A stretch of 64,000 bases of DNA from an uncultured Verrucomicrobia subdivision 3 bacterium (GCA_903865745.1 CAIPKV010000025.1:1907-65906); one strand, 5' to 3'; positions 20,855 through 60,602 are shown, numbered from the stretch's first letter. Notes: generated by a model not told the origin, from the letters alone. Numbers and translations are program-made.

Positions 20855-21169
20855 AAACGAAGATTGGCCTCAAAGAACCATTGGTTAATGTCGTTGCATC
20901 GACGATTGCTGGCCTCAAATCGGTCATGGGCACCTCCAAATCGAGGGTGAACGCAGTTAAATCGATGATTTATCGGGGCGAAACGACCATTGGCGGGATC
21001 CAATCGATGATGGACGACCGTAAATCGATCATGGACGAGGTTAAATCGATCATTTAGACAATCAAATCGATGATGAACGCCTTCGAAACGACCATGAACG
21101 AGACCAAATTGACGATGAACCGGTGGAAATCGATGATTAATCCCTGCAAAAACATGAAAAGGCCCCGAA
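20855..21169. repeat. Tandem array A: about 15 units of exactly 21 bp, consensus AATCGATSATGRACG + 6 variable nt
   Basis: The anchor motif AA(T/A)CGA sits at 20855, 20918, 20939, 20960, 20981, 21002, 21023, 21044, 21065, 21086, 21107 and 21128. All offsets are multiples of 21. Confidence 0.9.
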
Positions 21170-21380
21170 ACAGGACGATTTGGGCGTTGCCAGCGTAGCA
21201 AACCCTTCCGGCATTGGCCGACCCGCCGTTATAGACACAAAAGTCATCCCTGCTGCTTTTGTGTATTTCGGGTATTTCGTGGTAAAATTCAGTCGTCGCG
21301 AACTTTCCGCACTAAACCATTCGCGCCAATCATTCTATTTGAGTTCGCCAGCAATTCTTCGCTAGAATTCGAATCACTTT

Positions 21381-22478
21381 ATGGCCATTCCGCTTCGCGA
21401 AAAATCCACCTGCCACTACGACCAGATTTCCTTGGGCGAAGTCATGCTGCGGCTCGACCCCGGCGAAGGCCGCATCCGCACCGCCCGCTCGTTCACCGCG
21501 TGGGAGGGCGGCGGCGAATACAATACTTCGCGCGGCCTGCGCAAATGTTTCGGCCTCAAAACCGCCGTCTGCACCGCGTTCGTTGACAACGAGGTCGGCC
21601 ATCTCATCGAGGATTTTATCATGCAGGGCGGCGTCAGCACCGACTTCATCCAGTGGCGCGCGGACGACGGCATCGGTCGCAGCATTCGCAACGGGCTGAA
21701 TTTCACCGAGCGCGGTTTTGGCATCCGGGGCGCGGTCGGCGTTTCGGATCGCGGCAATTCCGCCGCGGCGCAGCTCAAGCCGGGCGATTTCGATTGGGAT
21801 AATATTTTTGGCAAGATCGGTACGCGCTGGCTGCACACCGGTGGCATCTTCGCCGCCCTCTCGGAAACAACCGCGGCGCTGACTATCGAAGCGGTGAAGG
21901 CGGCAAAGAAGCATGGCGTCGTCGTCAGCTACGATTTGAATTATCGTCCGTCGCTTTGGAAATCCATCGGCGGCCTCAAAAAAGCGCAGGAGGTGAATCG
22001 CGAAATCGCCAAATACGTGGACGTGATGATTGGCAACGAAGAAGATTTTACGGCTTCGCTCGGCTTTGAAGTAAAAGGCGCGGATCACAACTTGAGTACG
22101 ATTGAAACGGATGCGTTTAAGGCGATGATTGAAACCGCGGTGAAGACCTATCCGAATTTCAAGGTGGCCGCGACCACCTTGCGCCGCGTCATCACCGCGA
22201 CGAAAAACGACTGGAGCGCGATTCTCTGGCACGACGGCAAATTTTTCGAGAGCCGGAAATATCCGGAATTGGAAATCCTGGACCGTGTCGGCGGCGGCGA
22301 CAGTTTTGCGAGCGGCCTGCAATTCGGCTTCCTCGAATTCAACGATGCGCAGAAGGCGGTGGAATACGGCGCGGCGCACGGTGCGCTGGCTTCGACCACG
22401 CCCGGCGACACGAGCATGGCCACGCGCAAGGAAGTGGAAAAAACCTTTAGCGGCGGCAGCGCCCGCGTGCAGCGATAA
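21381..22478 (+). CDS. PfkB-family sugar kinase, KdgK-like, paralog 2
   Basis: 365 aa, colinear with the kinase at 18336-19418 (shared blocks AAQLKPGDF.W..IFG, GGIFAALSETT, DLNYR, GNEED, DRVGGGD). Confidence 0.85.
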   Translation: MAIPLREKSTCHYDQISLGEVMLRLDPGEGRIRTARSFTAWEGGGEYNTSRGLRKCFGLKTAVCTAFVDNEVGHLIEDFIMQGGVSTDFIQWRADDGIGRSIRNGLNFTERGFGIRGAVGVSDRGNSAAAQLKPGDFDWDNIFGKIGTRWLHTGGIFAALSETTAALTIEAVKAAKKHGVVVSYDLNYRPSLWKSIGGLKKAQEVNREIAKYVDVMIGNEEDFTASLGFEVKGADHNLSTIETDAFKAMIETAVKTYPNFKVAATTLRRVITATKNDWSAILWHDGKFFESRKYPELEILDRVGGGDSFASGLQFGFLEFNDAQKAVEYGAAHGALASTTPGDTSMATRKEVEKTFSGGSARVQR

Positions 22479-22484
22479 AAATTT

Positions 22485-23258
22485 ATGAAAACACCAGCAG
22501 AACTGTTCTCCCTCAAAGGCAAAGTGGCGGTCGTCATCGGCGGCACGGGCGTGCTGTGCGGCGAGATGGCCGAAGGTTTGGCCATCGCCGGCGCGACCGT
22601 CGCGCTCGTCGGTCGCGATGCGACCAAGGCGCAGGTGCGGCTGTATGCCATTGCCAAAGGCGGCGGCAAAGCGGAATTCTTTTCGTGCGATGCGACTTCC
22701 AAAACGGCCTTGCAGCAACTGCTGGCCGATGTGCTGAAGCAGCTTGGCCGGGTGGACATTTTGGTAAACGGCGCCGGTATCAATTCGCCAACGCCATTCC
22801 TTGATATTCCCGAAGACGAGTTCGATAAAATCATTACGGTGAATTTGAAGGGCGTCGTGCTGGCGTGCCAGGTGTTCGGCAAACATCTGGTGGAACAGAA
22901 ATCCGGCAGCATCATCAACCTCGGCTCCGCCTCCGGGCTGGCGCCGATTTCGCGCGTGTTCACTTATTCAGCCTCCAAAGCGGCGGTGCATAACCTCTCT
23001 AAAAATCTCGCGCGCGAGTGGGCGACGAGCGGCGTGCGCGTGAACATTCTGGTGCCCGGATTTTTCCCGGCGGAACAAAACCGCAAAATCCTCAATCCCG
23101 AACGCGTGGCCAGTATCATGGCCAAGACGCCGATGAAGCGCTTTGGCGAGGCGCACGAGCTGGTGGGCGCGACTTTGTTGCTGGCGTCGGATGCGGGTAG
23201 CTTTATCACCGGCGCGGAAATCGTGGTGGACGGCGGGTTCGATGCGATGAGCATCTGA
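22485..23258 (+). CDS. SDR-family oxidoreductase (KduD/gluconate-5-dehydrogenase-like)
   Basis: TGxxxGxG-type motif ([11 protein letters not shown]), NGAG, and a YxxxK catalytic motif (YSASKAAV). Length is 257 aa. Confidence 0.9.
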
Positions 23259-23304
23259 GGCGAACGCTTTAAGTACGAAATATTCTTACCAAGCGAAAAT
23301 AATC

Positions 23305-23342
23305 AGCCCGTTGAAGTCAAACCTTCAACGGGCTTTTGATTT
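23305..23342. terminator. Bidirectional hairpin terminator between convergent SDR and MFS genes
   Basis: Perfect 12-bp stem agcccgttgaag / cttcaacgggct. It is flanked by an A-rich run upstream and a T-rich run downstream. Confidence 0.6.
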
Positions 23343-23352
23343 CTGAATAAGT

Positions 23353-24714
23353 TTAGATGTCGGTGATTGGCTGGTGGCGCGGCACGAGCGTTTTCATCAC
23401 AGCCCACGCCGTCAAATAACTCAACGCGCAGACGAAGAACATAATGAGGTAGGCGTGCTGCGGGTTCGCCTTGAACGTGTCCGTGAGCGAGCCGGCGAGC
23501 AATTGAACCAGTACGCCGCCGAGGCCGCCAGCCATCGCGCCAATACCGGTCACCGAGCCGACCGCTTTCTTTGGAAACATGTCGGACACGGTCGTGAACA
23601 GATTCGCCGACCACGCCTGATGCGCGGCGGCCCCGATGCAGATAACGGCGACCGCCAGCCATGAAGCCATCTGGCCGAACTGGCTGACATTGGCGAAGTA
23701 TTGCGTGCTCAAGACCGTTAGCGGGCACAGCGCGATGAGGAACATCGCGGTCATGCGCGCCTTGTAAACCGGCAGGCCTTTTTTGATGAGCGTCATCGGA
23801 ATACTGCCGCCATAAACGCTGCCGATGATGGCGACACCATAGACGATGAACGTCGGCAACATGACTTCATGCTTACTCATGCCGAACTGTTTTTTCAAGT
23901 AGTCCGGCAGCCAGAAAAGATAAAACCACCAGACACCGTCGGTTAGAAATTTCCCGAAGAAAAACGCCCACGTCTGCCGGTAGCCAAAGAGTCTGCCCCA
24001 GGAAACTTTCGCCTGGTCGCCGTTCGCGTCCTTGACGCCGGACTCCTCGTCAATGTGGATGTATTCGTATTCCGCCGACGACAGCCGCTGGCTTTTGGCC
24101 GGGGTGTCGTAGAGCCAGAACCAGAAAATCAGCCACACAAAACCAACCGCGCCGGTGTAGATGAAAGCCATTTTCCAGCCCTGCTGGTCACCGTAATGAA
24201 TCAGGCACCACGGCACAAACAGCGCGGCAATCATCGCGCCGAAGTTCGAGCCGCTGTTGAAGATGCCCGTGGCCAAGGCGCGCTCGCGCTTCGGAAACCA
24301 CTCGGCTACCGTCTTAATGGACGCGGGGAAGTTGCCCGCCTCACCCACGCCAAACGCGCTGCGCACGAGGATGTGGGCCATGAGCAAACGCCCGACGAAG
24401 GCATTCGCAATGCCGAAAATCGACCAGGTGATGAGCGATAGCGCGAGACCGAGCTTGGTGCCGATTTTATCAATGACCCAGCCGGCGAGAATGGTCATGC
24501 CCGCGTAAAATGCGGTGAAGGCGGAGGTCAGGTGGGCAAAATCCGTGTTGGTCCAGCCGAAGCCGCCCTGCGCTTCCGGCGTACAGAAGAATTCCTTGAG
24601 GTAGCTGATGACCTGACGGTCCAGATAATTGAACGTAGTGGAAAAAAACAGGAGTCCGCAGATGATCCAGCGGAAATTGCTGGTGAGCGGGCGGGACGGA
24701 TTAGGGGAATTCAT
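23353..24714 (-). CDS. MFS transporter, hexuronate (ExuT)/ACS-family-like
   Basis: 12 TM helices. The N-terminus RWIICGLLFFSTTFNYLDRQV is typical of the ExuT/ACS family. ATG at 24714 is preferred over the TTG at 24750 used by the ORF track. Confidence 0.85.
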   Translation of the reverse strand: MNSPNPSRPLTSNFRWIICGLLFFSTTFNYLDRQVISYLKEFFCTPEAQGGFGWTNTDFAHLTSAFTAFYAGMTILAGWVIDKIGTKLGLALSLITWSIFGIANAFVGRLLMAHILVRSAFGVGEAGNFPASIKTVAEWFPKRERALATGIFNSGSNFGAMIAALFVPWCLIHYGDQQGWKMAFIYTGAVGFVWLIFWFWLYDTPAKSQRLSSAEYEYIHIDEESGVKDANGDQAKVSWGRLFGYRQTWAFFFGKFLTDGVWWFYLFWLPDYLKKQFGMSKHEVMLPTFIVYGVAIIGSVYGGSIPMTLIKKGLPVYKARMTAMFLIALCPLTVLSTQYFANVSQFGQMASWLAVAVICIGAAAHQAWSANLFTTVSDMFPKKAVGSVTGIGAMAGGLGGVLVQLLAGSLTDTFKANPQHAYLIMFFVCALSYLTAWAVMKTLVPRHQPITDI

Positions 24715-25186: not shown

Positions 25187-25200
25187 ATTTAATAAAAACT

Positions 25201-25238: not shown

Positions 25239-25254
25239 TAAATTGTCGGGCGAT

Positions 25255-25707
25255 TCAGCAGCGCTTCGGGCGCAGGATCAAAACCTTCTTATCCGTACCC
25301 TCCACTTCCACGCTGTGCGATTCCACATCGGGATCTTCGCGTAAGGCGTGGTGGACAATGCGGCGGTCAAAGGCGTTGAGCGGCTCCAATTCAACGGCAT
25401 CACCCCAACGACGGACCTTGTCAGCGGCATCTTTTGCCTTTTTCACGAGCGCCTCGCGCGCCTGCGCACGGTAGCCGCCCACATCGAGCATGACCTTAGG
25501 CGCGCTTTGATCCGCCTGAAACAGGAGGCGGTTCACGATGTATTGCAAATCCGCAAGCGTCTGGCCTTGGCGACCAATTAGGCGGCCCGACTCATCCGCT
25601 TTAACGTCGAGCATGAGGTCGTCACCAATTCGTTGCTCGGTTACCGTTGCCGGAAAACCGAGCGTGCCGAGAATCTTCTCCGTAATGTCTTTGGGCGTTG
25701 CAGGCAT
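25255..25707 (-). CDS. jag: Jag-type RNA-binding protein (KH + R3H domains)
   Basis: KH GxxG motif (IGRQGQTL) and an R3H-like motif (FDRRIVHHAL). It lies immediately downstream of yidC. Confidence 0.85.
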   Translation of the reverse strand: MPATPKDITEKILGTLGFPATVTEQRIGDDLMLDVKADESGRLIGRQGQTLADLQYIVNRLLFQADQSAPKVMLDVGGYRAQAREALVKKAKDAADKVRRWGDAVELEPLNAFDRRIVHHALREDPDVESHSVEVEGTDKKVLILRPKRC

Positions 25708-25718
25708 GAGATATTTAA

Positions 25719-27560
25719 TTATTTTTTCTTTTTTGATACCGGAGTCAATGCCGGATTCGTCGCCGGTCCAGTCGGCGTGGCGACGGTGGGGATGTTCGAC
25801 TTAGTCAACTTCGTCTGCGCCACAGTGAGCAGGTTGTTAACCGTCCAGTAAAGTGCGAGGCCGGACGAATAATTGTAGAGGAACAAGATGAACATTGCAG
25901 GCAGCCAGCGCATCATCTTCTGCTGCGAGGGATCCATACCGGGCGACGGCGGCGTCAGGTGCGACTGCCACAGCATCGCGCCGCCCATGAGCAGCGGCAG
26001 CAAGTTAAAGGGCAGACCGTCCGGCGTGCAGATGATGGGAATAAACGTCAAACCGTGAATCATGAATAGGGTGTCCGGCTTTGACAAATCCGACACCCAG
26101 AGGAAATGCGCGCCGCGCAGTTCAATCGCGCTTCGAATCATCGTGAAAAAACCGATGAATACCGGCATCTGGATGACCATCGGCAAACAGCCGCTCATCG
26201 GATTGACTTTGTTCTTCTTATAAAGTTCCCACTGCTTGGACGTGAGCTTTTGCACGTCATCCTTGTATTTTTCCTTCAGCTCCGCCAACTCCGGCGCGAG
26301 TGCCTGCATCCGCTTCATTGAGCGCGTACTCGCCGCCGTGAGCGGCCAAAACAGCAGTTTGATGAGAACCGTAATCCACACAATCGTCCAGCCGTAGCCG
26401 ACGCCAAGCAAATCATGCACCGCGTTCATCGCCGACAGCAGCAGTTTGGCGAAGAAGGTGCCGATGCCAAAGAAACTCCCGAACCCGCTGCCGAAATTCA
26501 TCACTTGATCGGCATGGTTGTTAAACTCCTCGCCTACGCGCGCCAACGTGCGAAATTCCTTGGGGCCAGCGAATAAAACTAAATTACGATCGAAGACAGA
26601 TTTGGCCGACAACGTGATCGCCGGATAAACCAGCGCCGTTTGGATGCCACGCGGCGATACCAGATTCGTCACCACGCCCACATTTTGGAAACGCGGCAGC
26701 GTCACCACCCGCGCGACCATCTGCAGCGCTGGCTCGTTGGTCGCCGGCATCGCCACCATCGCGAAAAACTGGTTGTGCGCCGCTGCCCAAACCACGTTGC
26801 CACTACCTGCAGTAAACACCGGCCGGGGCGCACCACGCGTACAGCCTACGCCGCCGCCCGCGAACCACGCCAGCGGCTGATCGTGCGCCGTCACACCGTC
26901 AAACCACATGGCGCCCTCGACTTGCCCGTTGTCATCCACGTCCATCGGGGTCGCCGTACCCACCACGAACTCCTGCTGCGGCAAAATTAGCGGCTTATCT
27001 GAGGTATTCTCAAGGCGCACATCGGCCAGCACGAGGAAATTGGAACTCAATTGGAAATTCTTAATCAGCAGCAGACCATCGGGAAAAGATTTTTCTGCGC
27101 GCACACCAGTCGCCGTTTGCGTCAGCGCAAAGTTACCGTCGCCAATCAAACTTTCGCCGCCGAGCACCGCCAGGGCCGGCACCGTCGTCCGCGCGTTCAA
27201 GGCCGAGACTGCCGAGGTCGCATTGCTGACCGAATCTTTCCAACGCGCTGAAACCGTCTGTGGATAATCAAGTAGTTCGATCAGCTTCAAACCACCGCCG
27301 CGCGAGGTAAACGTATAGCGCGCCCGACCATTCGTCAGAACCAGCGTCTGTTCCGGGGCGTTTGGGTCGAAAACAACGGAGGGTGTGTGCGTGTTTTCTA
27401 CTGGGGACGTCGTAGTCGTTGAGTTGGTGCTCGCCGCCAGGATAGTCGGATGAGATGCTTCGTACTGTGCCCGCTGCTGTGCAATCTTGTTCTCCTCTAC
27501 AAACCACCAGCCAAACAGCAGCACGCAGATTGAAATGACGATAATTCCGGTCTTGTCCAT
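25719..27560 (-). CDS. yidC: Membrane protein insertase YidC
   Basis: 613 aa with an N-terminal TM helix, a large periplasmic domain and the conserved C-terminal 5-TM core (CLPMVIQMPVFIGFF, YNYSSGLALYW). Synteny is rnpA-yidD-yidC. Confidence 0.95.
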   Translation of the reverse strand: MDKTGIIVISICVLLFGWWFVEENKIAQQRAQYEASHPTILAASTNSTTTTSPVENTHTPSVVFDPNAPEQTLVLTNGRARYTFTSRGGGLKLIELLDYPQTVSARWKDSVSNATSAVSALNARTTVPALAVLGGESLIGDGNFALTQTATGVRAEKSFPDGLLLIKNFQLSSNFLVLADVRLENTSDKPLILPQQEFVVGTATPMDVDDNGQVEGAMWFDGVTAHDQPLAWFAGGGVGCTRGAPRPVFTAGSGNVVWAAAHNQFFAMVAMPATNEPALQMVARVVTLPRFQNVGVVTNLVSPRGIQTALVYPAITLSAKSVFDRNLVLFAGPKEFRTLARVGEEFNNHADQVMNFGSGFGSFFGIGTFFAKLLLSAMNAVHDLLGVGYGWTIVWITVLIKLLFWPLTAASTRSMKRMQALAPELAELKEKYKDDVQKLTSKQWELYKKNKVNPMSGCLPMVIQMPVFIGFFTMIRSAIELRGAHFLWVSDLSKPDTLFMIHGLTFIPIICTPDGLPFNLLPLLMGGAMLWQSHLTPPSPGMDPSQQKMMRWLPAMFILFLYNYSSGLALYWTVNNLLTVAQTKLTKSNIPTVATPTGPATNPALTPVSKKKK

Positions 27561-27566
27561 AAAAGT

Positions 27567-27857
27567 TTAGTTTGTATCCGCCGCTGCAATTTTCCCATCC
27601 ACCATTGACCATCGGCTAGCCGCTTTCGGCACCGGGTCGTGGCCGTGACCACCCCACGGATGGCAGCGGCAAATCCGTTTAGCCGACAAAATAGTTCCCG
27701 CCAGTGCGCCGCATTCCTGCACGGCTTCAATCGCATATTGCGAACAGGTGGGCGTAAACCGGCAACCGCCCGCGCCAAACAAAAACGTCTGTGCCGGCGA
27801 AATTACCAGCCGATAAACGCGCACCGCAAAAACAAGAATGTGCTGGAGCAGGTTCAC
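27567..27857 (-). CDS. yidD: Membrane protein insertion efficiency factor YidD
   Basis: Motif [14 protein letters not shown]...[17 protein letters not shown]. Confidence 0.9.
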
Positions 27858-27863
27858 AGAGTT

Positions 27864-28232
27864 TCAGTTCTTGATTAATTTCGCGCGTTGCAGCGCCGCG
27901 AGAAAATCCTTTTCCACCCCGGCAAAATCCTTTTGAACGATTGAGTTGCGCGCCACCAAAACCAGTTCCACCGGCGAAGCAAATTCGTGCTGGTGTAGCC
28001 GGAAGCTTTCGCGGAGCAAGCGCCGGGCGCGGCTGCGGGTGGGCGCATTACCAATTTTCTTGCTGGTGACGACGCCGAGCTTGGGAGTAGTGCCATCGGG
28101 CAGCTTATTCCAATTTGCAATAAGACAACCGAGCACAAGCCGATCCCCGCGCTGACGGACGCGTGCGAAATCGCGGTTTTGCGCGAGCCGCGACGAACGA
28201 CCCAGGCGCAGGCGTTTCGGCGCGGGATTCAC
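27864..28232 (-). CDS. rnpA: Ribonuclease P protein component
   Basis: 122 aa basic protein with an RNR-like motif (GNAPTRSRARRLLRE), immediately downstream of rpmH. Confidence 0.9.
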   Translation of the reverse strand: MNPAPKRLRLGRSSRLAQNRDFARVRQRGDRLVLGCLIANWNKLPDGTTPKLGVVTSKKIGNAPTRSRARRLLRESFRLHQHEFASPVELVLVARNSIVQKDFAGVEKDFLAALQRAKLIKN

Positions 28233-28236
28233 AAAA

Positions 28237-28374
28237 TCAAACCGGCGTCAGGCGTTTGCGGCCCACGCGGCGGCGGTTGGCCAGGGTGGCCTTGCCGCTC
28301 TTGGTAGAATTGCGGTTCAGAAACCCGTGCTGGCGTTTCCGGCGGATTTTCGACGGTTGATACTGGCGTTTCAT
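28237..28374 (-). CDS. rpmH: 50S ribosomal protein L34 (not in the ORF track, below its size cutoff)
   Basis: The reverse strand reads [45 protein letters not shown]-stop. ATG is at 28374-28372 and TGA at 28239-28237. Confidence 0.95.
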
Positions 28375-28417
28375 AAAATTAAATAATTCGTAACCGGCGC
28401 AAAAACCGGAGCGTGGG

Positions 28418-28445
28418 AGAATAGCAACGAGCGGCCTTGTGTCAA
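28418..28445 (-). promoter_or_regulatory. Candidate sigma-70-type promoter for rpmH-rnpA-yidD-yidC-jag
   Basis: On the minus strand there is TTGACA (28445-28440), a 16-nt spacer, then TATTCT (28423-28418). Confidence 0.3.
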
Positions 28446-36598: not shown

Positions 36599-36740
36599 GG
36601 GTCGCCCCTGACGGAGCGTGCTTCCTTGGTGTTGCCACATCTATCTCAGTGCCAGCCCAACCGGCTTCGCTCCCCCCGTTCGCACCAAGGGACAACCTAA
36701 CCATGGTTAGGCGGAAGCCACAGCCGCATCTTTGGTTGAG

Positions 36741-36971
36741 GCATCCGCGTGTTGGTTTGCCACAGCCGCGTGTTTACTTGGAGCATTCCCGTGTTTGTTT
36801 GAGGCAAGCGCGGATTCACTTGAGCCATTCCCGTGTTTACTTACCGCAAGTGAATACGCGCTCGGGGCATTCCCGTATTCACTTGCCCCATGCGCGTGTT
36901 TGGTTGGGGCATTCGCCTACGCGAATGCCCCATTTGAATACGCGCTCGGGCCAAATGAATACGCGGATGTG
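36741..36971. repeat. Tandem array B: 11 units of exactly 21 bp in two mutually complementary subtypes (GCATTCCCGTGTTTACTTG / GCAAGTGAATACGCGCTCGGG)
   Basis: The anchor C(G/C)CGTG sits at 36746, 36767, 36788, 36809, 36830, 36872, 36893 and 36914, all offsets of 21 or 42. There is a perfect 13-bp hairpin at 36846-36858/36874-36886 and a perfect 12-bp hairpin at 36905-36916/36921-36932. Confidence 0.9.
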
Positions 36972-37153
36972 GTGTCCCGAACGTGGAAAATGCTGGAAAA
37001 CCCGCCTTTTGCCCCGGTTAAGACGGAAATGGCGCGGTTCCGTGGTAAAACGGCGGGTTCAGCATCAAAATCGGCGGCCGCAAAGTTTGCTTGGTCTAGT
37101 TGCCGCTTCTTGTTTAAACTTTCACGACAGTTTTGAATCAAAAGGAACATTTT

Positions 37154-39430
37154 ATGGCTACATCACACATTTGGAAATTCTTCCGCGCCGGCGGCTTTAA
37201 TCAGGTTGTCATCGGCACGGGCGCCGACCTCGCCAACCTCGACCAGCTCGACCAGAAACTTTGGGTCGCCCTCGCCTGCCCCACCACCGGCATCGAATTT
37301 GATCCGACCACGCTCGCGCTCATCGACACCGATAAGGACGGTCGCGTGCGTGCGCCGGAACTCATCGCCGCCGCCAAGTGGGCCGCCGGCCTCATCAAGA
37401 ATCCGGATGACCTGCTCAAAGGCAGCCCCACGCTCAAACCCTCCGCCATCAATGACGCCACGCCGGAAGGTAAATTGATCGCCAACTTTGCGCGCCAGGT
37501 TTTGGGCAAGGCCGATGACGGCGAAGTGACTTTTGACGAAGCCGCCGCCGCCGCCGCGACCTTCGCCGCCAAGCCCTTCAACGGCGACGGCATCATCCCC
37601 GCCGAGTCCGCCAGCGACGACGCGACGAAAGCCGTCATTGCCGACATCATCAACTGCCTCGGCGCGGATGCCGATGTGAGCGGCAAGCCCGGCGTGAGCC
37701 AGGCCAAGGTGGACCAGTTTTTTGCCGAAGCCGCCGCGTATTCCGATTGGTGGAAGAAGGCCGAAGCCGACGCCACCGTACTGCCGCTCGGCGTGAATAC
37801 CGAGGCCGCCGCCGCCGCCGTCAAGGCAGTCAAGGTGAAGGTGGAAGATTACTTTGCGCGCGGCCGGCTCGCCGCCTTTGACCCGCGCTCCGTCAACGCG
37901 CTCAACCGCGATGAAAAAGATTACGTGGCGCTCGGCACAAAAGATTTGACCAATAATCACGCCGATATCGCCGGCCTGCCGCTCGCGCAAGTCGGCGCAA
38001 CCACGCCGTTGCCGCTCACGCAAGGCATTAATCCCGCGTGGGCCGGCGCGATTGCGGCACTGCAAACGAACGCCATCGTGCCACTGCTCGGCGCGCGGAC
38101 GGTGTTGACGGAGGCGGATTGGAACGCGCTCACCGGCAAGCTCGCCGCGTTCGACGCGTGGAACGCCAGCAAGACCGGCGGCGCCATCGAGAAAATCGGT
38201 CTGGCCCGCGCGCGGGAAATTCTCGCCAGCAAGGCGAAGGAAACGTTGACCGCGCTCATCGCGAAGGACGCCGCGGAAGCGGGCAATTCCACCGCCGTCA
38301 TCGGCCTGCACCGGCTGATTCATTATCATCGCGACCTCGCGAAGCTCTGCCGCAACTTCGTCAACTTCGCGGATTTCTACGGCCGCAAGGACAAGGCCAT
38401 TTTCCAAGCGGGCACGCTGTATCTCGACCAGCGCAGTTGCGACCTGTGCCTCACGGTGGACGACGCCGGCCGACACGCGACGATGGCGGGCATGGCGGGC
38501 ACTTACCTGGCCTACTGCGATTGCGTCCGTAAGGGCACCGGTGAGAAGTTGTCCATCGTCGCCGCGTTCACCGGCGGCGATTCTGATAACTTAATTGTCG
38601 GTCGCAACGGCATTTTCTACGACCGCGCGGGTCGCGACTGGGATGCCACCATCAGCAAGATTGTGGAAAATCCCATCAGCGTCCGGCAGGCCTTCTGGTC
38701 GCCGTACAAAAAACTGGTGCGCATGATCGAAGAACGCGCCGCCAAAGCCGCCGCCGATGCCGATGCCCAATCCAATGCAAACCTGACAGCCGTGGCGAAT
38801 ACGCCCGTCTCCCCGACGGCGGCTCCAGCTGCGCCGGCAAAATCCGCCTTCGATCCGAGTGTCATCGCCTTGCTCAGCTTGGCCTTCGGTGCCTTGGCCA
38901 CGGCATTCGCAGGCTTCTTGACCTTCCTTGGTAGATTTAACGAAGATCAATGGAAGCTGCCGCTGGTTATTCTTGGCATCATGCTATTGATTTCCTCGCC
39001 GTCCATGGCCATTGCGTGGCTGAAACTGCGCAAGCGCAACCTTGGTCCGATTCTCGACGCCAACGGCTGGGCAGTGAACGCCAAGGCGAAGATGAACGTG
39101 CCATTCGGTGGTGCGCTTACCGGGGTGGCGGCGCTGCCGCCGGGCGCGACGTTCGGGGCGCCGGACAAATATGCGGAGAAGCCGTCCGCCTGGCCGAAAG
39201 TTCTGGCGGTCGCGTTCGCACTGTGGTTCGTCTGGGCATTCCTCAACGACAGTCAAGGGCGGCTCTACAATTGGACGGATGGTCAATACGGCACGCCGCC
39301 GCTATCGGTCCGCGAACAGATTGCCAAAGACAAACAAGACAAACTCAACAAAGCCAAGGCTTCTGTTTCGGGCACCAACGCCGTGCCAGCCACGGTTTCG
39401 GCGGTAACCAACGCGGTTCCAACGAAATAA
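37154..39430 (+). CDS. Large membrane protein with an N-terminal canonical EF-hand loop, function unknown
   Basis: The start at ATG 37154 is preceded by AAAGGA. DTDKDGRVRAPE matches the 12-residue EF-hand loop pattern D-x-D-x-D-G-x-(hydrophobic)-x-x-x-E. The C-terminal region has 3 or more TM helices. Confidence 0.7.
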   Translation: MATSHIWKFFRAGGFNQVVIGTGADLANLDQLDQKLWVALACPTTGIEFDPTTLALIDTDKDGRVRAPELIAAAKWAAGLIKNPDDLLKGSPTLKPSAINDATPEGKLIANFARQVLGKADDGEVTFDEAAAAAATFAAKPFNGDGIIPAESASDDATKAVIADIINCLGADADVSGKPGVSQAKVDQFFAEAAAYSDWWKKAEADATVLPLGVNTEAAAAAVKAVKVKVEDYFARGRLAAFDPRSVNALNRDEKDYVALGTKDLTNNHADIAGLPLAQVGATTPLPLTQGINPAWAGAIAALQTNAIVPLLGARTVLTEADWNALTGKLAAFDAWNASKTGGAIEKIGLARAREILASKAKETLTALIAKDAAEAGNSTAVIGLHRLIHYHRDLAKLCRNFVNFADFYGRKDKAIFQAGTLYLDQRSCDLCLTVDDAGRHATMAGMAGTYLAYCDCVRKGTGEKLSIVAAFTGGDSDNLIVGRNGIFYDRAGRDWDATISKIVENPISVRQAFWSPYKKLVRMIEERAAKAAADADAQSNANLTAVANTPVSPTAAPAAPAKSAFDPSVIALLSLAFGALATAFAGFLTFLGRFNEDQWKLPLVILGIMLLISSPSMAIAWLKLRKRNLGPILDANGWAVNAKAKMNVPFGGALTGVAALPPGATFGAPDKYAEKPSAWPKVLAVAFALWFVWAFLNDSQGRLYNWTDGQYGTPPLSVREQIAKDKQDKLNKAKASVSGTNAVPATVSAVTNAVPTK

Positions 39431-54500: not shown

Positions 54501-57500
54501 TGGTGCCGGTAATGCCCGAAAGGCCATTCAGCGTCTGGTTGTTGCCATTCAAGTCCAGGGTGCCAGCCGTGCTGCCGCCATCCAGAACCGTCCAACCCGT
54601 TACGCCGACGGGGAGCACCGCCGGGCCGGCCAGCTTGACCGTGCCACCATTGATAGCGGTGTTGTTGGCATAAGTATTGACCCCGCCAAAGATGTTGGTG
54701 CCCGGACCGTTAAAGCTTACCCAGCCATTGCCGCTGATGCCATTGGTCACGGCATAGGTGCCGGCCAGATCAAAGGCGACGGTGCCGCTATTGGTCAGGC
54801 TGATGGCATTGGTCGGAAACGCTGTCGTGCCGCCGTTACCAAATTGAAGGGTACCCGTGTTGATCACGGTTGCGCCAGCGTAGGTGGTATTGCCTGCCAG
54901 GGTCACCGTATTCGAGCCCTCTTGAACGAGGCTGCCAGTGCCGGTTAAGTTGCCCACCACCGTATAGTTGTTGTTCGTCTGATCAAAAATCAGGAGCGCG
55001 TTGTTGGTGATGACACCGGCACTAAGGCCCGTGTTCGGGGTGTTGCCATCGCCGACCTGCAACACGCCGCCATTGATGGTCGTCGGGCCGGTGAAGTCAT
55101 TGGTGATGAGTAGCGTCAGCGTGCCGGAGCCGGTCTTGGTCAGACCGTTGGTCATGATGCCGGTAATCTTGCCTAAGCCGCTAGTGCTATTAAACGTGTA
55201 ATTGGACGAACCGCTCACCATGACGCCGCTGGGCGACACTGGCAGCTGCAAATTCACCGGGGAATTTGCCGCGCCCGCATTATTAAAGGTGACGCTGTCG
55301 CCGTTTAAAAAGGCTTCGTCATCCACACCAACCAAGTTCGTCCAGTTGATGCTGCTCGTGTCCCAGTAGTTGGCCGAACCGTCACCAATCCAGGTCAGAC
55401 TATTCGTACCAAGCGTCAGCACAATGAGTTGAATATGACCGGCGTTATCATCATGCAGCGTGAAAAACTGGTTGCCCACTTGGGCGGGAGTCACATTCAA
55501 GTTGGCGGTCACGGAGCCGCTGATGGAGTCATAGGTAATGAGCGTATTAGTGCCATCGGGCAGCGTGCCGGAAATGTTCAACTTGACCGTGCCAGCGCCG
55601 GCCAGGGTCAATCCGCCTGTCACCGCGACCAAATCGTTGGTGCTGCTGCTGATGTCAAACAAATTGGTGTTCCCATTCAATATCAGTCCACCCGTAAAAG
55701 TGAGCGTGCCATAATTACCCAGACCGGTGACACCCGGGGCAAGCGTGCTGCCAGGGGCCATGCCCACCGGTGCCTGGTTATTGAAGCTACCGGTGCCAGC
55801 CAGCGTTGTTCCGGCATAGTTGGTCGTAGCGGTATAGCCGCCCAGCAGGCTGTCCACCTCCAGCGTACCGCCACTGACTATCGTCGGGGCGGAATAATTA
55901 TTCGCACCGCCGCTCAGGACCAGCAGACCGGTACCAACCTTGGTCAGACCGGTGTATTGAGAGCCATCGGTGATGTTACCAGCAAAGGTGCTGGTCGTGT
56001 TCAGGTTGCCGACCACGAAGATGCTGGGAAGCGTGGTGTTACCACCGGGATTGGACGTGTTGCCGGCGGTGAGCCCAGATCCGGCACTACCGTTTAACGC
56101 ACCGAGATAAACCGTCTGGTTGCCATATTTGCTGTTAATATTTCCGGTCGCGCCCAGATTCCAGGTCGCATTTGCACTGCCATAAGTGGTAGCCGTAGTA
56201 ACGATGCTGGCCCGGATGCCGCCGTTGAGGTTGATGATGCCGCTAAAACCGCTCACGCTGCCGCTCGGGCTAAAGGTGCCACCAACAATATCCAGGTTCA
56301 CCGTCCCGCCGCCGACGAGATTGAGCGCTGGATAATAGCCACCGGTGCCATTGAATTCGAGCGTACTGATCGCGCTGGGCGCATTGCTGATGGTGTTGGC
56401 AATGTAGGCGCCGTTTTCATATAGAGTGCTGCTGTTATTGAGCGTGACCAGGCCGCTACCGAGGCTGCCGACGCCGGTGAGCGTCACCTGGCCGCTGTTG
56501 ATCACCGTGCCGCCGGTGTAGGTGTTGGCCGCCGTCAACGTCAGGATTCCGGAAGAATTCACATTCAAAGCCACCGTCTTGGTGCCGCTGCCCAGTACAT
56601 CTTCAATCACGCCACCAAACGTCGAGCTGCCGCCATTGTAATTGAGGGTTGAAGCCGCCACGGTACCGCCGTTGCCGATGTAGCAGGTGGTGGCACCGGT
56701 AGCAATGGCCAGACTGCCCACCGTCAAACCGCTGTTGTTCAAATCCAGAATGCCGTTCGTGACGCTGCTGCCCAGTGTCAGGGTGTTGATGGCGCTGTTG
56801 CCGCCAATGGCCAGTGTGCCGCCCGCCTCGACGGTTACATTGCCGGAGCCGTTAATGGGGCCGGTGGCCACCCGGCTGGGCGAATCCATCACCAAGGCCG
56901 CGTTGTTGGTGACGCTGCCCGTTCCGATCGCTCCGGAGATGGTGCCGTTACCGAGCTGCACCGTGCCGCTATTGATAATTGTGCCGCCGGTGTAAGTGTT
57001 GGCGGTCAGAATGGTCAAGGTTCCGGTACTGTTATTGGTCAGGGCGGTCGCACCGCCGATTACCCCGGTGTTGGTGAAAGTATAGCTCTGGGTGCCATTG
57101 ACGGTCACGCTGCCCGGGGTGAGCGCCCCCACCAGATTGACCGTTGTATTGGCGGAAGTGTTATCAAAGATTGTATTATCACTGTCATTATACACCCACG
57201 GATTAACCGAAGTAGTGGTGTCGTCCCAGTTCGACGTGGTATTCACATCCCACTGGCCGCCCGAAACGTTACCAACCCAGGTCAGGTTCTGGGCGACATA
57301 GGTGCCAACCACCAGATTCAATCCGCCCGAAACCGCCGACAACGAAACCGACTGGCCGCTCTGCGTAAAGCCAGATATGGCTATGGCAGACAACGATCCA
57401 CCCGGCGTGCCACTGCAATTGATCAACCGGTAAGTGCCATTGGCCAGCGTGCCATTCGCGATGCTCAATTGGATGTTGCCGGAAGTGAGAGTCAGTCCAC

Positions 57501-59943
57501 CGGTGAGGGTGATGATGCCGTTGGTGTGGAAACCGGCATCAAATCTTATCAGGATGTTGCCGCCATTCAGCACTAGGCTACCGAGGGTCAGGATACTGTT
57601 CGTTCCAATCGAGCTTACCGTGCCGCCGGTCGAATTTGTCACCGCTCCGCTGATGCTGCCAGTGCCGGTCAGGATGCCTGACCCATTGATTGTCACACCG
57701 CCCGTGCCAGTGGCCGAACCGGTTGAATTGTTGGCATTCAAGGTGCCGCCACTGACCGTGGTGCCGCCGGTGTAAGTGCTCGGGGCGAGCAACGTCAAAG
57801 ACCCGTTCGGGAGCGAGCTGGCCAAGGTCAGCGCGCCGCTGCCGCCGTTGCCGACGGTATTGGTGAAGACCACCGCGTTGCCATTCACATCAATCGTACC
57901 ATTGCCCGTCAAGGTCACGGGCTTGGCTACTCCGCCATTCGTGCCGCCGGTGCCATATGAGGTGTCTTCCGTAATGTCCAGTGCCACGTTAAGCGGCGTC
58001 GCCGCATATTGAAGGGTACCATTATTAAAGGTCAGACCGCCGTAGGCCCCGCCGCCCAGCGCCCAAACACTATTGATGATGGCCGTGGCGCCGCCCGTGA
58101 TGATGGTTCCACTGGAATAGCCATTGCCAGCTCCGTTCAAATTCACCGTGCCGCTACCGACGATGGCGGTCGTGTTCGCCGTACCGGCACCGGTGCCGGG
58201 CAGCGTGCCGCAGCCAATAATGAGCGGACCAGAACCACTGGCACTGTTTATGTAACCATCCACCGACATGGTCTTGCCGGCCGCAGCAGCTAGCGTCCCA
58301 CCCGCACCGCTCAGATATATCGGGCGGGGGTTCGCGCCAGCATTATCCAAGGTGAAAGTGCCATTGCCAAACAGCGTGCCACCATTGATGTTCAAGGTTG
58401 CTCCCGTGGCAATCGCGCCTAGGCCGGAATTGGCACTGATGACCGTATAACCACCATCCAAGAAATTCTGTCCGGTATAGGTGTTGACACCGTTGAGAAA
58501 TACCGACCCAGGTCCGCCTTGGATGTAAGTAGACGTAGCCGCGCTGCTAGATCCGTTAGCGATTGGTGGGCTTATAATGAATTCACCCAAGATATTGTTT
58601 TGCCATACCGTCAAACCCGTAGCCGCACCGGTTGAGCGGCTGGCCTGTAAGGCAATCGCCCCACTGGCCGCTATCGTAGTATTGTTAGCACCCACATTAG
58701 GTGTAACAAGGAAGGCGCCACAGACGGAATTGCCAGTCACGTGCCCCTCAGTCAACGTGATCGCACCAGCGGTATTAAAACGGACTTCCCCATAAGCTCC
58801 TGAAACACTGCCGCTACCATTAAACATGGTGGCATTGGCTGTCAAATCAATGTTAAGCCCATAGCTGCTAGTTGCAGGGAGTGAATTCACTGTCGAATAA
58901 AATCCAGAAATCTGACTACCACCCACGATGGTGCCAGTTTGGGCTGTCCCAACCGTACCACCGGACACCGCCGCCCAGTCATACAGGCCAACGGTGGCAT
59001 AGGCTCCCGCCGCACCCCCTGTAGAGGTAGATATGAGTCCCAGATCGCTGGTATTCGCGGTCACATTGTAAACCCCGGTCGCTGCCACGGTGGTACCACC
59101 GAGCGTCGTCCCGCTGCTCGCGCCGCTGTTATACGCGGCACCATCAAAACGTACCAACGCACCGGCCGTGCCGGTTAGCGTGCCCAAATTATTGGTGGGA
59201 ATCGTGCCGGAGATCGCCGAGTTGGTGATGATACTCTGACCAGAGGTGGTCGAATAAAACGCCGTGCTGGCAAAAGTCTGTGAACTGCCGCCGCTAGCCC
59301 CCAAGGTCTGCACCGTGCCGCCATTCAACTTCAACGCGCTGGCAGAATTAATGATGTTGGCCGAAGGCGCGCCGCCGGCGGTGAAATCCAGCTTGAGCGT
59401 CCCGGCATTGTTTGTCACGTTGCCCGTAAAGGTGTTGGCCGCTGATAGGACGAGCGTGCCCGGACCCGTCTTGGTGATGCCAAAGGTTGAACCGGAAATG
59501 ACGCCACCCACGGTCAGAGTCAGGCCGCTATTCACCGACCACGTCTGGGAGGCACTCAAAGCGACCGCGCAATTGAGGGTCGCATTGTTGTTGGCCGAAG
59601 CCATGTTGATGCCGGAAGCCGCCAGCGTCAAAGTACTGCCGGCACCGACCGTCAGCGGGCCGGCGGTGTTGTTGTCAAATTGGAGTCCCAGCAGGGAAGT
59701 ATTCCCCCCCAGCGCCATGCCGGACAAGTTGGCGGAACTGGGCGTGCTGCCAAACTCGCCAATCACGCTGGCGGTTGGCGCAACTGCGGTGACGCCGCCC
59801 GGAGTCGTCGCCCAATCAGACGAGGCGCTCATCGTCGCGGTAGCCGCCTTGTAAATATTCGCTTGGATCTTCACCGCGCCGGCCAGTAACAGCAGGCCGG
59901 TGCCGAGGATGATTTGTTTGGTGATTAATTGATTGGTTTTCAT
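51598..59943 (-). CDS. Giant (2781 aa) PATR protein with 4 cadherin-like beta-sandwich domains and a C-terminal beta-sandwich tail
   Basis: Signal peptide, then about 2100 aa of PATR-type repeats (GxGTLxLxGxNTYxGxTxxxxGTL). Four units of the L..L..S.G.L.P.F......Y type follow (cadherin-like beta sandwich). No autotransporter barrel is present. Confidence 0.85.
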   Translation of the reverse strand: MKTNQLITKQIILGTGLLLLAGAVKIQANIYKAATATMSASSDWATTPGGVTAVAPTASVIGEFGSTPSSANLSGMALGGNTSLLGLQFDNNTAGPLTVGAGSTLTLAASGINMASANNNATLNCAVALSASQTWSVNSGLTLTVGGVISGSTFGITKTGPGTLVLSAANTFTGNVTNNAGTLKLDFTAGGAPSANIINSASALKLNGGTVQTLGASGGSSQTFASTAFYSTTSGQSIITNSAISGTIPTNNLGTLTGTAGALVRFDGAAYNSGASSGTTLGGTTVAATGVYNVTANTSDLGLISTSTGGAAGAYATVGLYDWAAVSGGTVGTAQTGTIVGGSQISGFYSTVNSLPATSSYGLNIDLTANATMFNGSGSVSGAYGEVRFNTAGAITLTEGHVTGNSVCGAFLVTPNVGANNTTIAASGAIALQASRSTGAATGLTVWQNNILGEFIISPPIANGSSSAATSTYIQGGPGSVFLNGVNTYTGQNFLDGGYTVISANSGLGAIATGATLNINGGTLFGNGTFTLDNAGANPRPIYLSGAGGTLAAAAGKTMSVDGYINSASGSGPLIIGCGTLPGTGAGTANTTAIVGSGTVNLNGAGNGYSSGTIITGGATAIINSVWALGGGAYGGLTFNNGTLQYAATPLNVALDITEDTSYGTGGTNGGVAKPVTLTGNGTIDVNGNAVVFTNTVGNGGSGALTLASSLPNGSLTLLAPSTYTGGTTVSGGTLNANNSTGSATGTGGVTINGSGILTGTGSISGAVTNSTGGTVSSIGTNSILTLGSLVLNGGNILIRFDAGFHTNGIITLTGGLTLTSGNIQLSIANGTLANGTYRLINCSGTPGGSLSAIAISGFTQSGQSVSLSAVSGGLNLVVGTYVAQNLTWVGNVSGGQWDVNTTSNWDDTTTSVNPWVYNDSDNTIFDNTSANTTVNLVGALTPGSVTVNGTQSYTFTNTGVIGGATALTNNSTGTLTILTANTYTGGTIINSGTVQLGNGTISGAIGTGSVTNNAALVMDSPSRVATGPINGSGNVTVEAGGTLAIGGNSAINTLTLGSSVTNGILDLNNSGLTVGSLAIATGATTCYIGNGGTVAASTLNYNGGSSTFGGVIEDVLGSGTKTVALNVNSSGILTLTAANTYTGGTVINSGQVTLTGVGSLGSGLVTLNNSSTLYENGAYIANTISNAPSAISTLEFNGTGGYYPALNLVGGGTVNLDIVGGTFSPSGSVSGFSGIINLNGGIRASIVTTATTYGSANATWNLGATGNINSKYGNQTVYLGALNGSAGSGLTAGNTSNPGGNTTLPSIFVVGNLNTTSTFAGNITDGSQYTGLTKVGTGLLVLSGGANNYSAPTIVSGGTLEVDSLLGGYTATTNYAGTTLAGTGSFNNQAPVGMAPGSTLAPGVTGLGNYGTLTFTGGLILNGNTNLFDISSSTNDLVAVTGGLTLAGAGTVKLNISGTLPDGTNTLITYDSISGSVTANLNVTPAQVGNQFFTLHDDNAGHIQLIVLTLGTNSLTWIGDGSANYWDTSSINWTNLVGVDDEAFLNGDSVTFNNAGAANSPVNLQLPVSPSGVMVSGSSNYTFNSTSGLGKITGIMTNGLTKTGSGTLTLLITNDFTGPTTINGGVLQVGDGNTPNTGLSAGVITNNALLIFDQTNNNYTVVGNLTGTGSLVQEGSNTVTLAGNTTYAGATVINTGTLQFGNGGTTAFPTNAISLTNSGTVAFDLAGTYAVTNGISGNGWVSFNGPGTNIFGGVNTYANNTAINGGTVKLAGPAVLPVGVTGWTVLDGGSTAGTLDLNGNNQTLNGLSGITGTTLGRIVNNGGTGVNTLTISNWSAPTYAGLILDTNVNGSNGKIALVIAGAGTQTLSGNNNYSGGTTVNYPAKLLIGAATNLGTGMTTLEGGTLGVTANGIYLNGISLTVPSGTNGLIIMTNAMKLPALYGSGTLNLQVNNQQPQNSSSVIGDCLSTCANFGGTLNITGAEANAYLVLNFNNVNGGSFDGNLSGATVNLITGVGGVSLVGMNNSGGNTAQFGALNVDASSALGGADYVATQTYQIGALNTTSVIDGVITNGSGVSGGGPSAITKVGTGKLILNNNGNTYTGKTTVNAGTLQVNGQITASPVTVNSGGILSGTGTLGNVVTNNAGAMLYPGVNGIGQLTLNSNLTLNATSTNLFVVTTAGGVSNTVAVAGLLSPNGSVVEINTGGGQLAAGTYNNLFTYGTTNGTQFATAVVFDTPQSGTFGTITNDGAGHVNLVVSTASKDASLFNLVVNASVSPTFHPGTTNYFATNYNANSSVTVLVTNNSAFATNQLFLNNVSQGLLTNEVTSLPLAVGVGSTNVIRVQVTAQDGLTVSNYFVTVTRLSTNAQLANLVISNGTGALTFYPSPFATTNTGIYYATNAAGAGPVTVTVTVTNVDATAMNTLLLGTTTKQVLTNEIASSGLTLNVGTTNVSVQVVSQDGSQTSTYVVSLTQLGSASSSTTYLTSLVLSNAANVQLPFSPTSFSTNLPSGPYTATNSLASLPLTVTITNIDSNATNTLYVNSSNVGYLTNGLTSSPLTTATGLVEGSNNVTVQTVSQDGSVMNSYTVNVTLQGTNALLTSLLISPWALSQSFSSGLTNYTATNTYPNTNVAVTATSADGNAAVALSFNNGSNYNIPLTNGVASANNALSLSQPANVLAVQVVSQDGLQTNVYTVNALLQPITNSPPHLTNSVSGGTSLVLSWPQGYLGYRLLVQTNNLNKGVSSNKTDWGTVLGSTNITSTNLTIIKVGMTNEYYRLVYP

Positions 59944-60084
59944 AACGGGGAACGTTCGGATGGTCTTAGGATTATTCGGATTGAACGGATTGATTTAGTT
60001 TTAACTCTGAACACTTAAGTCTTCGGCCATAAACGCAACGGCGCGTGACGACAGACGACTCTGCTGGGTGATGGGCATGATGCA

Positions 60085-60142
60085 AATATACGCCGTGTTC
60101 AAAAATGCGCCATCACCAGAACTGTTGATGCCGCATCACCAG
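60085..60142 (-). promoter_or_regulatory. Candidate regulated promoter/operator of the giant operon
   Basis: On the minus strand, a TATATT -10-like hexamer (60090-60085) has no good -35. Upstream of it are two direct CTGGTGATG repeats (plus-strand CATCACCAG at 60111-60119 and 60134-60142, 23 bp apart) embedded in the inverted CAGAACTG/CAGTTCTG. Confidence 0.3.
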
Positions 60143-60224
60143 TTCTGGGGACATGGCGAATCGGTGGCTGGCTCGTAAATGGTAGTTGGGCGACCCGTTT
60201 TTAACCGGAGCAATTGCCGGTTAA

Positions 60225-60602
60225 ACCTATCTTCTCGGTCTTGCATCCTCCCGTCTCGCTGATGATTCCTCCCCGCTCCGTCACTGATCCTCCCGCCTGT
60301 GTCGCAATTCCTCCCCACTCGCTGACCAACCCTCCCGTCTCGGTCACTGATCCTACCCGCTCGCTAATGATTCCTACCCGGTCGGTCGCCAATCCTACCT
60401 TCTCCGTGACTAATCCTACCCTCTCGATGACGTATCCTCCCGTCGCAATGACGGATCCTCCCATCTCAGCCACGCATCCTCCCGTCTCGATGATAATTCC
60501 TCCCCTGTCAGTCACCGTTCCTCCCGTCTCAATGACACTTCCTCCCGTCTCCGTCGCACTTCCTCCCGTCTCCATGACGGATCCTCCCGTCTCCGTCGTC
60601 AC
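60225..60602. repeat. Tandem array C: 18 units of exactly 21 bp, 12-nt conserved core TCCTCCCGTCTC + 9-nt variable tail
   Basis: TCCT anchors sit at 60246, 60267, 60288, 60309, (60330), 60351, 60372, 60393, 60414, 60435, 60456, 60477, 60498, 60519, 60540, 60561 and 60582. A degenerate unit lies at 60225. Confidence 0.92.

Follow-up and report, generated by a model that had tools for sequence, protein, structure and literature searches.

Why do three tandem arrays of unrelated sequence keep one and the same unit length? This question is raised by a stretch of 64,000 nucleotides from an uncultured Verrucomicrobia subdivision 3 bacterium (CAIPKV010000025.1:1907-65906 of assembly GCA_903865745.1; hereafter the window), in which three arrays, designated A, B and C, share an exact period of 21 bp. 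The explanation that we prefer, tentatively, is that the arrays may be mobile or inserted non-coding cassettes, in which each unit would consist of a protein-recognition core and a free spacer, with the cores held two helical turns apart.

The window was searched for periodicity with Tandem Repeats Finder and by lag autocorrelation (126-bp windows, lags 4-99), and only four strongly periodic regions were found. In the autocorrelation, array A occupies 20826-21202 (lags 21/63/84/42, peak 0.66), array B 36668-36997 (0.71 at lag 42 and 0.56 at lag 21) and array C 60180-60658 (0.79 at lag 42 and 0.73 at lag 21), and a super-period of 42 bp is present in B and C. The fourth region, 8747-9103, has lags of 41/82 bp. 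Best-lag self-identity in the four regions peaks at 0.66-0.83, compared with a maximum of 0.51 in the block-shuffled window. Laid out at 21 bases per line, A, B and C resolve into 13-15, 12 and 17 units, each in a single register without indels, which confirms the strict 21-bp register that the initial annotation had described. The consensus units, AAATCGATSAT... in A, CA..C.CGTGTTTACTTG in B and TCCTCCCGTCTC... in C, are mutually unrelated, and the longest stretch common to the flanks of the three arrays is at most 12 nt.

An assembly artefact at k = 21 was rejected, given the divergence of the units and the identity of the arrays across samples and assemblers. Arrays B and C have the same number of units in two independent assemblies of the same organism, and the sequence of array B is identical in one such assembly (L007, 99.995% identity). 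It follows that the arrays did not arise in assembly and are not visibly unstable; the constant unit number is neutral as to function.

The period was compared with a background set of 89 tandem arrays from unrelated bacterial loci. These loci came from a contig scan for three copies of CCTNCCNNNTC at 21-bp spacing, a pattern that was too loose and gave at least 120 matches, corresponding to unrelated 21-bp arrays from many phyla, mostly coding. Periods were multiples of 21 in at most 10% of the 89 background arrays, and most of the 21-bp arrays found elsewhere in bacteria in these loci lie inside long open reading frames (ORFs). At this frequency, the chance of four independent non-coding 21-bp arrays, namely A, B, C and one detected on the related contig L166 (see below), is ~1e-4. 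The earlier suggestion that the shared period exceeds chance thus holds also with an independent array of unrelated sequence included, and the view that the period common to unrelated arrays is not a coincidence is supported.

The absence of indels is itself informative. Where the intergenic DNA of this genome could be aligned with that of eight relatives, 0.14 gap openings were counted per substitution. Between 54 and 69 substitutions were inferred for each array, so that ~8 indels per array would be predicted, and none was seen; unit length is therefore constrained, with a large part of the unit sequence left free, in agreement with the constrained register proposed before. The units of A, B and C are only 53-67% identical. 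All three arrays have more transversions than transitions (A and C, 55:31; B, 44:36), a sign that the free positions have been randomised to saturation rather than lightly mutated. The constraint falls on the nucleotides in the core and on the length in the spacer.

In array A, the unit has the core AAATCGATSAT, which holds ATCGAT and the palindromic ATSAT, followed by a largely free spacer of 10 bp. Parsimony changes per site amount to 4-7 in the spacer and 0-4 in the core, and the first 10 unit positions take 16 of the 69 changes. For array C, a core with a variable tail had been described. The core is present, but the tail is less free than stated: on the minus strand the unit reads GAGACGG[G/T]AGGA-T-NN-GTSAC-N, that is, a 12-bp core and a conserved palindromic pentamer, which leaves ~5 of the 21 positions free. 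As the pentamer centre lies ~11.5 bp from the core centre, array C has one motif per helical turn. In both palindromic pentamers, GTSAC in C and ATSAT in A, the central base alternates between C and G. The previous account of array B was correct on the 21-bp register; the array is better described as a 42-bp higher-order repeat in which the core CGCGTGTTTACTTG occurs in both orientations. The use of both orientations gives rise to long palindromes and to hairpins of high stability (fold z -7.6 and -6.3).

The ORF annotated on array C led to a further member of the C family. A search of this ORF against a word-indexed protein database gave no match, and a full phmmer search gave 116 matches, nearly all to unrelated low-complexity heptad ORFs. 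The only true homologue was the top match, P0260, which is encoded on the 947-bp metagenome contig L235. This contig has 16 units with the same core, pentamer and layout as array C, preceded by the same 34-bp leader, and the array is followed by 560 bp unrelated to any window sequence, the tail not being common to both copies. The difference in length between the two arrays (17 units in the window, 16 in L235) is exactly one 21-bp unit. Compared unit by unit, they show no diagonal; whatever the offset, 13.8-15.2 of the 21 positions agree. The lack of unit-to-unit orthology suggests turnover of the individual units, through which core, pentamer, period and leader persisted. Past the array of L235 (440-640) there is a long inverted repeat rich in GC, GCGCGTAGCTGCGACGCCCCGTCGCAGAA ... 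TTCTGCGACGGGGGCGTCGCAGCTACGCGC, possibly a terminator or a hairpin of the REP kind.

Arrays A, B and C are non-coding. Each of them is spanned by one or more open frames, and the gene caller annotated an ORF of 124 aa on array C and one of 249 aa on the homologous array of L235; no ORF was called on array B, and the array of L166 has stops in all six frames. The codon log-likelihood of the open frames ranges from -0.49 to +0.02 per codon, compared with 0.356 +/- 0.137 for the 32 genes of the window, which places them 2.4-6 standard deviations below genes. The GC content at third codon positions is 0.34 in the open frame of A and 0.69 in genes. In 33 pooled units of the C family, the four-fold degenerate sites of the frame reading ETGG took 0, 0 and 2 changes, core mismatches at codon positions 1, 2 and 3 numbered 15, 23 and 7, and the non-preferred codon GGA was retained in 64 of 66 cases. 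No match to Pfam was obtained with the array ORFs. The intergenic and non-coding nature of the arrays, as well as the view of the heptad ORFs as a by-product of a 21-bp period, was in this way borne out.

The window lies on a contig of 242 kb from a metagenome-assembled genome (MAG). Flanking-protein homologues are annotated as Verrucomicrobiae bacterium MAGs, a clade of which peat, soil and lake metagenomes contain much. The three arrays lie between same-strand genes, start 20-230 nt past a stop codon, and are absent from syntenic relatives in which the flanking proteins are 90-94% identical. The gap between the Lar_N-like gene and the PfkB-family kinase gene, which pairs with an SDR gene, measures 638 bp at array A and 62 bp in L002-L004. 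At array B, the gap from the KamA-type radical-SAM gene to the following 758-aa gene is 556 bp, and 72-112 bp in L008, L012/13 and L014. At array C, the regulator gene and the giant gene are separated by 891 bp, and by 266 bp in the closest syntenic relative (L137/L138). The extra DNA at each locus comprises the array and 80-230 bp of unique sequence on each side, forming a leader-array-tail cassette of 0.45-0.65 kb. Arrays A, B and C are thus insertions specific to this soil and peat lineage of Verrucomicrobiae, a feature that the initial annotation had missed, and the cassettes are recent insertions next to promoters. The coordinates of the features are collected in Table 1.

Table 1. Features of the window related to the tandem arrays (positions counted from the first nucleotide of the window)
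Feature	Position	Strand	Description
Array A	20855..21169	.	13 clear units (20897-21169) and 2 degenerate leading units, 21-bp register
Insertion with array A	20830..21405	+	Leader, array, tail; absent from syntenic relative L002
Array B	36721..36972	.	12 units of 21 bp forming a 42-bp higher-order repeat
Insertion with array B	36599..37076	+	Between KamA-type radical-SAM stop codon and conserved upstream block
Conserved promoter/5' untranslated region block of the 758-aa gene	37077..37153	+	Alignment with L012 and L014
Array C	60246..60602	.	17 units; site-rate dispersion 2.2, p = 0.001
Array C leader	60603..60636	-	28/34 positions identical with L235
Insertion with array C	60165..60790	-	Leader ~190 bp, array, tail ~80 bp; absent in L137/L138
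Ancestral promoter region of the giant PATR-repeat protein gene	59944..60165	-	Conserved 220 bp, outside the array
NarL/LuxR-family response regulator gene	60834..61487	-	Directly upstream of array C
41/82-bp array	8822..9019	.	4.8 hairpin-containing units, fold z -5.6

Besides the array, the insertion at A holds a promoter-like site (21339-21368) and the start of the coding sequence of the PfkB-family kinase, its first codons. At array B, a block of 80 bp upstream of the 758-aa gene is kept in relatives without the array; this block is ancestral and lies outside the insertion. No match to Pfam was found for the 758-aa gene (37154-39430), and its earlier label as an EF-hand membrane protein was not confirmed. 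Array C is located between a two-component system, consisting of the response regulator and its partner, a sensor kinase (Reg_prop/Y_Y_Y, from 61578 onward), and the gene of a 2,781-aa PATR-repeat surface protein. The tail of array C contains a hairpin, TTTAACCGG..CCGGTTAAA, at 60200-60225. Outside the array, ~170 bp upstream of the giant gene, a near-perfect palindrome (CCAGAACTG..CAGTTCTGG, TCACCAGAACTGTTGATGC/GCATCACCAGTTCTGGGGA; 60113-60151) is conserved with L137. This palindrome is a likely operator, possibly of the adjacent NarL-type regulator. A closer relative of the regulator gene, on L234, has no array. The giant PATR gene is absent from the L139-L145 lineage, where the region 3' of the orthologous regulator (6651-7421) is variable and carries a small HTH_3 gene, intact in part of the strains and, in the rest, disrupted or differently called.

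The sample of relatives comprised 1.16 Mb around the KamA, SDR and regulator genes and was scanned as the window was. Only one comparable non-coding array was found in it, at 10522-10836 of L166, with 15 units of exactly 21 bp. This array is AT-rich (32% GC in a locus of 57% GC), and its sequence is unrelated to A, B and C. It is located directly after the KamA stop codon, the slot of array B, and 20 bp upstream of a gene encoding an ArsR-type helix-turn-helix (HTH) protein of 109 aa, which is followed by the gene of a 933-aa Eco57I/MmeI-like N6-methyltransferase. The adjoining ArsR-type and methyltransferase genes indicate that the L166 array is part of an inserted restriction-modification island (10522-14071), and the methyltransferase is a candidate type IIG/IIL restriction-modification enzyme. 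A second strong periodic stretch in the sample, at 8881-9159 of L196 (lags 27/42/15), lies upstream of KamA and is presumed to be a coding repeat. No second copy of the A, B or C family was detected in the window or in the 1.16 Mb of relatives; for the genome itself the copy count rests on the 64 kb and a further 6 kb read.

An inverted-repeat search covering all four intergenic regions revealed neither terminal inverted repeats nor target-site duplications at the insertion ends, the positions of which are imprecise; the only pairs detected were weak (76-83% complementary) and lay away from these ends. A plasmid origin was rejected, as there was no blastn match in 72,556 plasmids, and a phage origin likewise, as viral contigs show only chance repeats of 2-4 units. 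Two viral contigs from IMG/VR (L227, 7780-7860; L230, 9360-9440) contain four tandem 21-bp units, AATCGATCATTATTCCGGAAG, with an AATCGATSAT core as in array A, which is probably a chance likeness. On the contig of a Rubritalea MAG, another verrucomicrobium (L037, CBDHDV010000049, 56001-64000), 8 kb are made up nearly throughout of near-perfect tandem arrays with periods of 31, 38, 25 and 21 bp, the 21-bp array having ~63 copies; this stretch probably represents either a giant gene for a repeat protein or DNA of the satellite type.

Taken together, the conserved cores, the spacers fixed in length, the palindromes, the cores in both orientations, the absence of significant RNA folding from A, C and L166 and the two-turn period point to phased recognition of double-stranded DNA. 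A period of 21 bp corresponds to two turns of B-DNA, which brings all cores to the same side of the helix, so that the array can serve as a platform. Cassettes of leader, array and tail were inserted into gene-to-gene spacers of this Verrucomicrobiae lineage. Those of B and C directly precede the region that holds the ancestral promoter of the following gene, whereas that of A supplies a promoter-like site of its own together with the initial codons of the PfkB gene. Each unit combines a sequence-specific core with a spacer that is free in sequence and fixed in length, with two motifs per unit in C. In the mechanism that we propose, a DNA-binding protein, different for each family, could dock side by side along the array and oligomerise; the adjacent promoter might then be activated, silenced or insulated, or the propagation of the cassette itself might be affected. 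The binding of a protein, its identity and the effect on transcription are inferences.

Several observations weigh against this mechanism of phased docking. The HTH domain of the regulator is identical in genomes with and without array C, on which ground co-evolution of the regulator with the array was rejected, and the conserved palindrome downstream, unrelated to the core of C, is the more obvious operator for it. A DNA-binding gene adjoins only array C (the response regulator) and the L166 array (the ArsR-like gene), and not A or B. With 12-17 sites, each array is far larger than known regulator arrays, and a distance of 80-300 bp separates the array ends from the start codon, with no abutting -35 element. 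No sigma-54 promoter was found downstream of A, B or C, and an enhancer role in sigma-54 transcription was rejected since the -24/-12 element is lacking there. At the orientation switches of array B, the core centres are spaced by 17 or 25 bp, and the phasing of B is therefore not strict. In the tail of C the most variable positions are 15, 18 and 21, a wobble-like pattern in the frame of the ORF. Finally, a generating mechanism that measures 21 bp and serves no host function would give the same picture.

An explanation that is possible, if doubtful, is that the arrays are selfish or neutral minisatellites carried on mobile elements similar to miniature inverted-repeat transposable elements (MITEs), of the BrickBuilt/PgRS kind, with no function for the host. 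The cores would then be sites of the transposase or of an accessory protein, or be kept uniform by unequal exchange, and the shared period would come from the machinery of the element or from a common ancestry of the element type. This is consistent with the insertion of arrays and unique flanks absent from relatives, with the same C leader beside unrelated downstream sequence on L235, with the turnover suggested by the missing unit orthology, and with an anatomy like that of BrickBuilt, the ~22/23-nt and 41-nt minisatellites of Porphyromonas gingivalis paralleling the 21 and 41 bp found here. However, the insertion boundaries lack terminal inverted repeats and target-site duplications, neither leaders nor tails resemble one another among the three cassettes, no transposase gene was found in the window, and no family has a second copy in the window or in the relatives sampled. 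BrickBuilt units, with 0-6% indels, are also far more uniform than those of A, B and C, and selfish propagation does not alone explain units that are highly diverged and indel-free. Action of the arrays as RNA, either as the 3' untranslated region of the upstream gene or as a small RNA whose repeated motif titrates an RNA-binding factor, seems unlikely. Their start shortly after same-strand stop codons would suit it, as would the 17 copies of GGGAGGA on the minus strand of C, similar to a Shine-Dalgarno sequence and to the GGA motif bound by CsrA, and the folding of B and the 41-bp array far better than shuffles. Nonetheless, the RNA folds of A, C and L166 are not significant (z -1.7 to +0.9), and no array gave a match in Rfam even at E = 1; the family of repeat RNAs proposed in the initial annotation is unsupported for A and C. 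A sponge also gives no reason for an exact 21-nt spacing in unrelated motifs, and pentamers with alternating centres and cores in two orientations point to recognition of double-stranded DNA. A sponge of the CsrB/RsmZ type, which displays its GGA motifs in the loops of hairpins, was rejected, since Rfam gave no match and the fold z-score of the C minus strand is only -0.68.

The unrelated sequences could also share a period if phased intrinsic curvature or flexibility had been selected upstream of promoters, with no dedicated binding protein. In our own wedge-model script, which uses provisional wedge parameters, array A is the most curved 300-bp segment predicted in the window (end-to-end/contour 0.33-0.43, mean 0.92) and array B is mildly curved (0.81), but C (0.915) and L166 (0.926) show no curvature beyond that of shuffles. 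As only A, and weakly B, is predicted to be curved, curvature was rejected as a general explanation; it also gives no account of conserved 12-bp cores beside saturated spacers, and we consider it very unlikely. To a small heptad-repeat protein gene in each array, which in C would encode M-(ETGGSVT)n from the ATG at 60575, we give hardly any credence. The open frames, the ORFs annotated on C and L235 and the usual location of 21-bp arrays inside long ORFs in other bacteria speak for it, and the wobble-like tail of C favours coding. Against it stand the codon statistics and third-position GC content, the invariance of four-fold sites in the core of C while amino-acid-changing sites vary, the persistence of GGA, the lack of Pfam matches, the lack of an ORF on B and the stop codons in L166; moreover, the two ORFs of the C family share no non-repeat domain, signal peptide or conserved terminus. 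Phased docking sites on inserted cassettes stay, tentatively, our preferred explanation.

The initial annotation had grouped the 41-bp array with the 21-bp arrays, for which the case is weak, the period being 41 rather than 42. The 41/82-bp array is a separate repeat type, only loosely related to A, B and C. Its hairpin unit is GGACCAA...TTGGTCC, and a Wzy_C/TPR O-antigen-ligase-like gene follows 60 bp downstream. A sigma-54-like TGG-N9-TGC match was noted upstream of it, at 8657.

Other features of the window were observed apart from the arrays. Two AT-rich heptamer runs, TTTTAAG at 14427-14510 and ACTAAAA/CTAAAAA at 15692-15776, flank the group of coaD-like, yceD and rpmF genes; this stretch has a low GC content (0.51), and the runs may be clade-specific promoter or terminator motifs. 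A transfer-messenger RNA gene was found at 1573-1925 (Rfam, 153.6 bits), with the tag peptide ATVNERNSRHG. The rpmH-rnpA-yidC-jag cluster usually adjoins dnaA and oriC. In the window this cluster is present at 25255-28440, followed by a sigma-54 activator gene instead of dnaA, and the window has no GC-skew switch. The possibility that the arrays are a cluster of DnaA boxes at a replication origin, considered because this gene cluster is near, was rejected given the lack of a GC-skew switch and the cores, which by eye are unlike the DnaA-box consensus, no motif search being made.

A broader proposal, which we regard as improbable, is that soil and peat Verrucomicrobiae carry an unrecognised class of mobile non-coding cassettes with 12-17 phased sites of 21 bp, in which a common molecular ruler imposes the two-turn period on unrelated sequence families, and which rewire or insulate the promoters beside them. 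Oligomerising DNA-binding proteins of one family might act as this ruler, or else an amplification process that advances by single protein footprints. Should the units be docking sites in phase, each cassette would place a portable, large cooperative protein platform beside a promoter. Such a platform would correspond in bacteria to an enhancer or insulator array, and through it the regulation of close species could change in a new way. If the arrays are only MITE-borne minisatellites, an obscure type of element from Porphyromonas (Bacteroidota) would extend to the Verrucomicrobiota, and annotators would be warned that heptad ORFs on such arrays are spurious. In the case of docking sites, the strict period in unrelated sequences would also offer a clean natural test of helical phasing as a constraint on DNA evolution.

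Among known repeat systems, CRISPR arrays were rejected on dimensions, as a core of 11-12 bp and a spacer of 9-10 bp compare with CRISPR repeats of at least 23 nt and spacers of at least 26 nt. No Cas proteins were found among the flanking and array-adjacent proteins scanned with Pfam, a scan outside which most ORFs of the window lie. Array B and the 41-bp array resemble repetitive extragenic palindromic (REP) elements and bacterial interspersed mosaic elements (BIMEs) in having hairpin units of alternating orientation after stop codons. In contrast, A, C and L166 contain direct repeats only and have no hairpins, and no gene for a REP-associated Y1 transposase (RAYT) was seen. The iterons and centromere arrays of plasmids (R6K, RK2, pSK41/R1 parC and F sopC) are direct repeats of 17-22 bp (43 bp in sopC) with a conserved core, in which helical phasing matters and which form cooperative protein platforms, sometimes with sites in both orientations. 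Unlike these, A, B and C are chromosomal, lie beside metabolic and housekeeping genes and have more units than usual, and neither a rep nor a par gene was found among their neighbours.

The statement of the initial annotation that no described class of elements applies was too strong, as two systems with related features have been described. The phosphorylated regulator BvgA (BvgA~P), of the NarL family, binds as six dimers at 22-bp spacing, two helical turns apart and on one face of the DNA (PMC7250471). At Pfha and Pptx, binding is cooperative over many weak sites, with 3-6 dimers on inverted heptad half-sites that abut the -35 element (PMC7250471). The register of A, B and C is similar in comprising two turns, array C adjoins the gene of a NarL-family regulator, and it precedes the promoter from which the gene of a giant surface protein would be read. 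Unlike the BvgA sites, array C consists of 17 direct 12-mers with GTSAC and ends ~80 bp before the conserved palindrome and promoter block; the HTH domain is unchanged in genomes without the array, and A and B have no adjacent regulator.

BrickBuilt elements of P. gingivalis have 23-nt units, in up to 22.8 copies, with a conserved first half and a variable second half (PMC4596501). They are always intergenic and possess a non-repetitive leader of up to 285 nt and a tail of up to 318 nt (PMC4596501). They form one family with 19 copies, a unit identity of 89-100%, 0-6% indels and IS5-like terminal inverted repeats, and the sister element PgRS/MITE464 has 41-nt units (PMC4596501). Similar to BrickBuilt, A, B and C are intergenic, show the order leader, array and tail, occur in one lineage and have conserved and variable unit halves, and the 41-nt units of PgRS are paralleled by the 41-bp array of the window. 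They differ from the single 23-nt family in having 21 bp and three unrelated families within 64 kb, in units of much lower identity without indels, and in boundaries at which the search for IS5-like terminal inverted repeats and for target duplications gave nothing. Both MITE-like minisatellite cassettes and phased arrays of binding sites are thus precedented, whereas several unrelated families with an exact two-turn period in one Verrucomicrobiae lineage, and units that are strongly diverged yet indel-free, are new.

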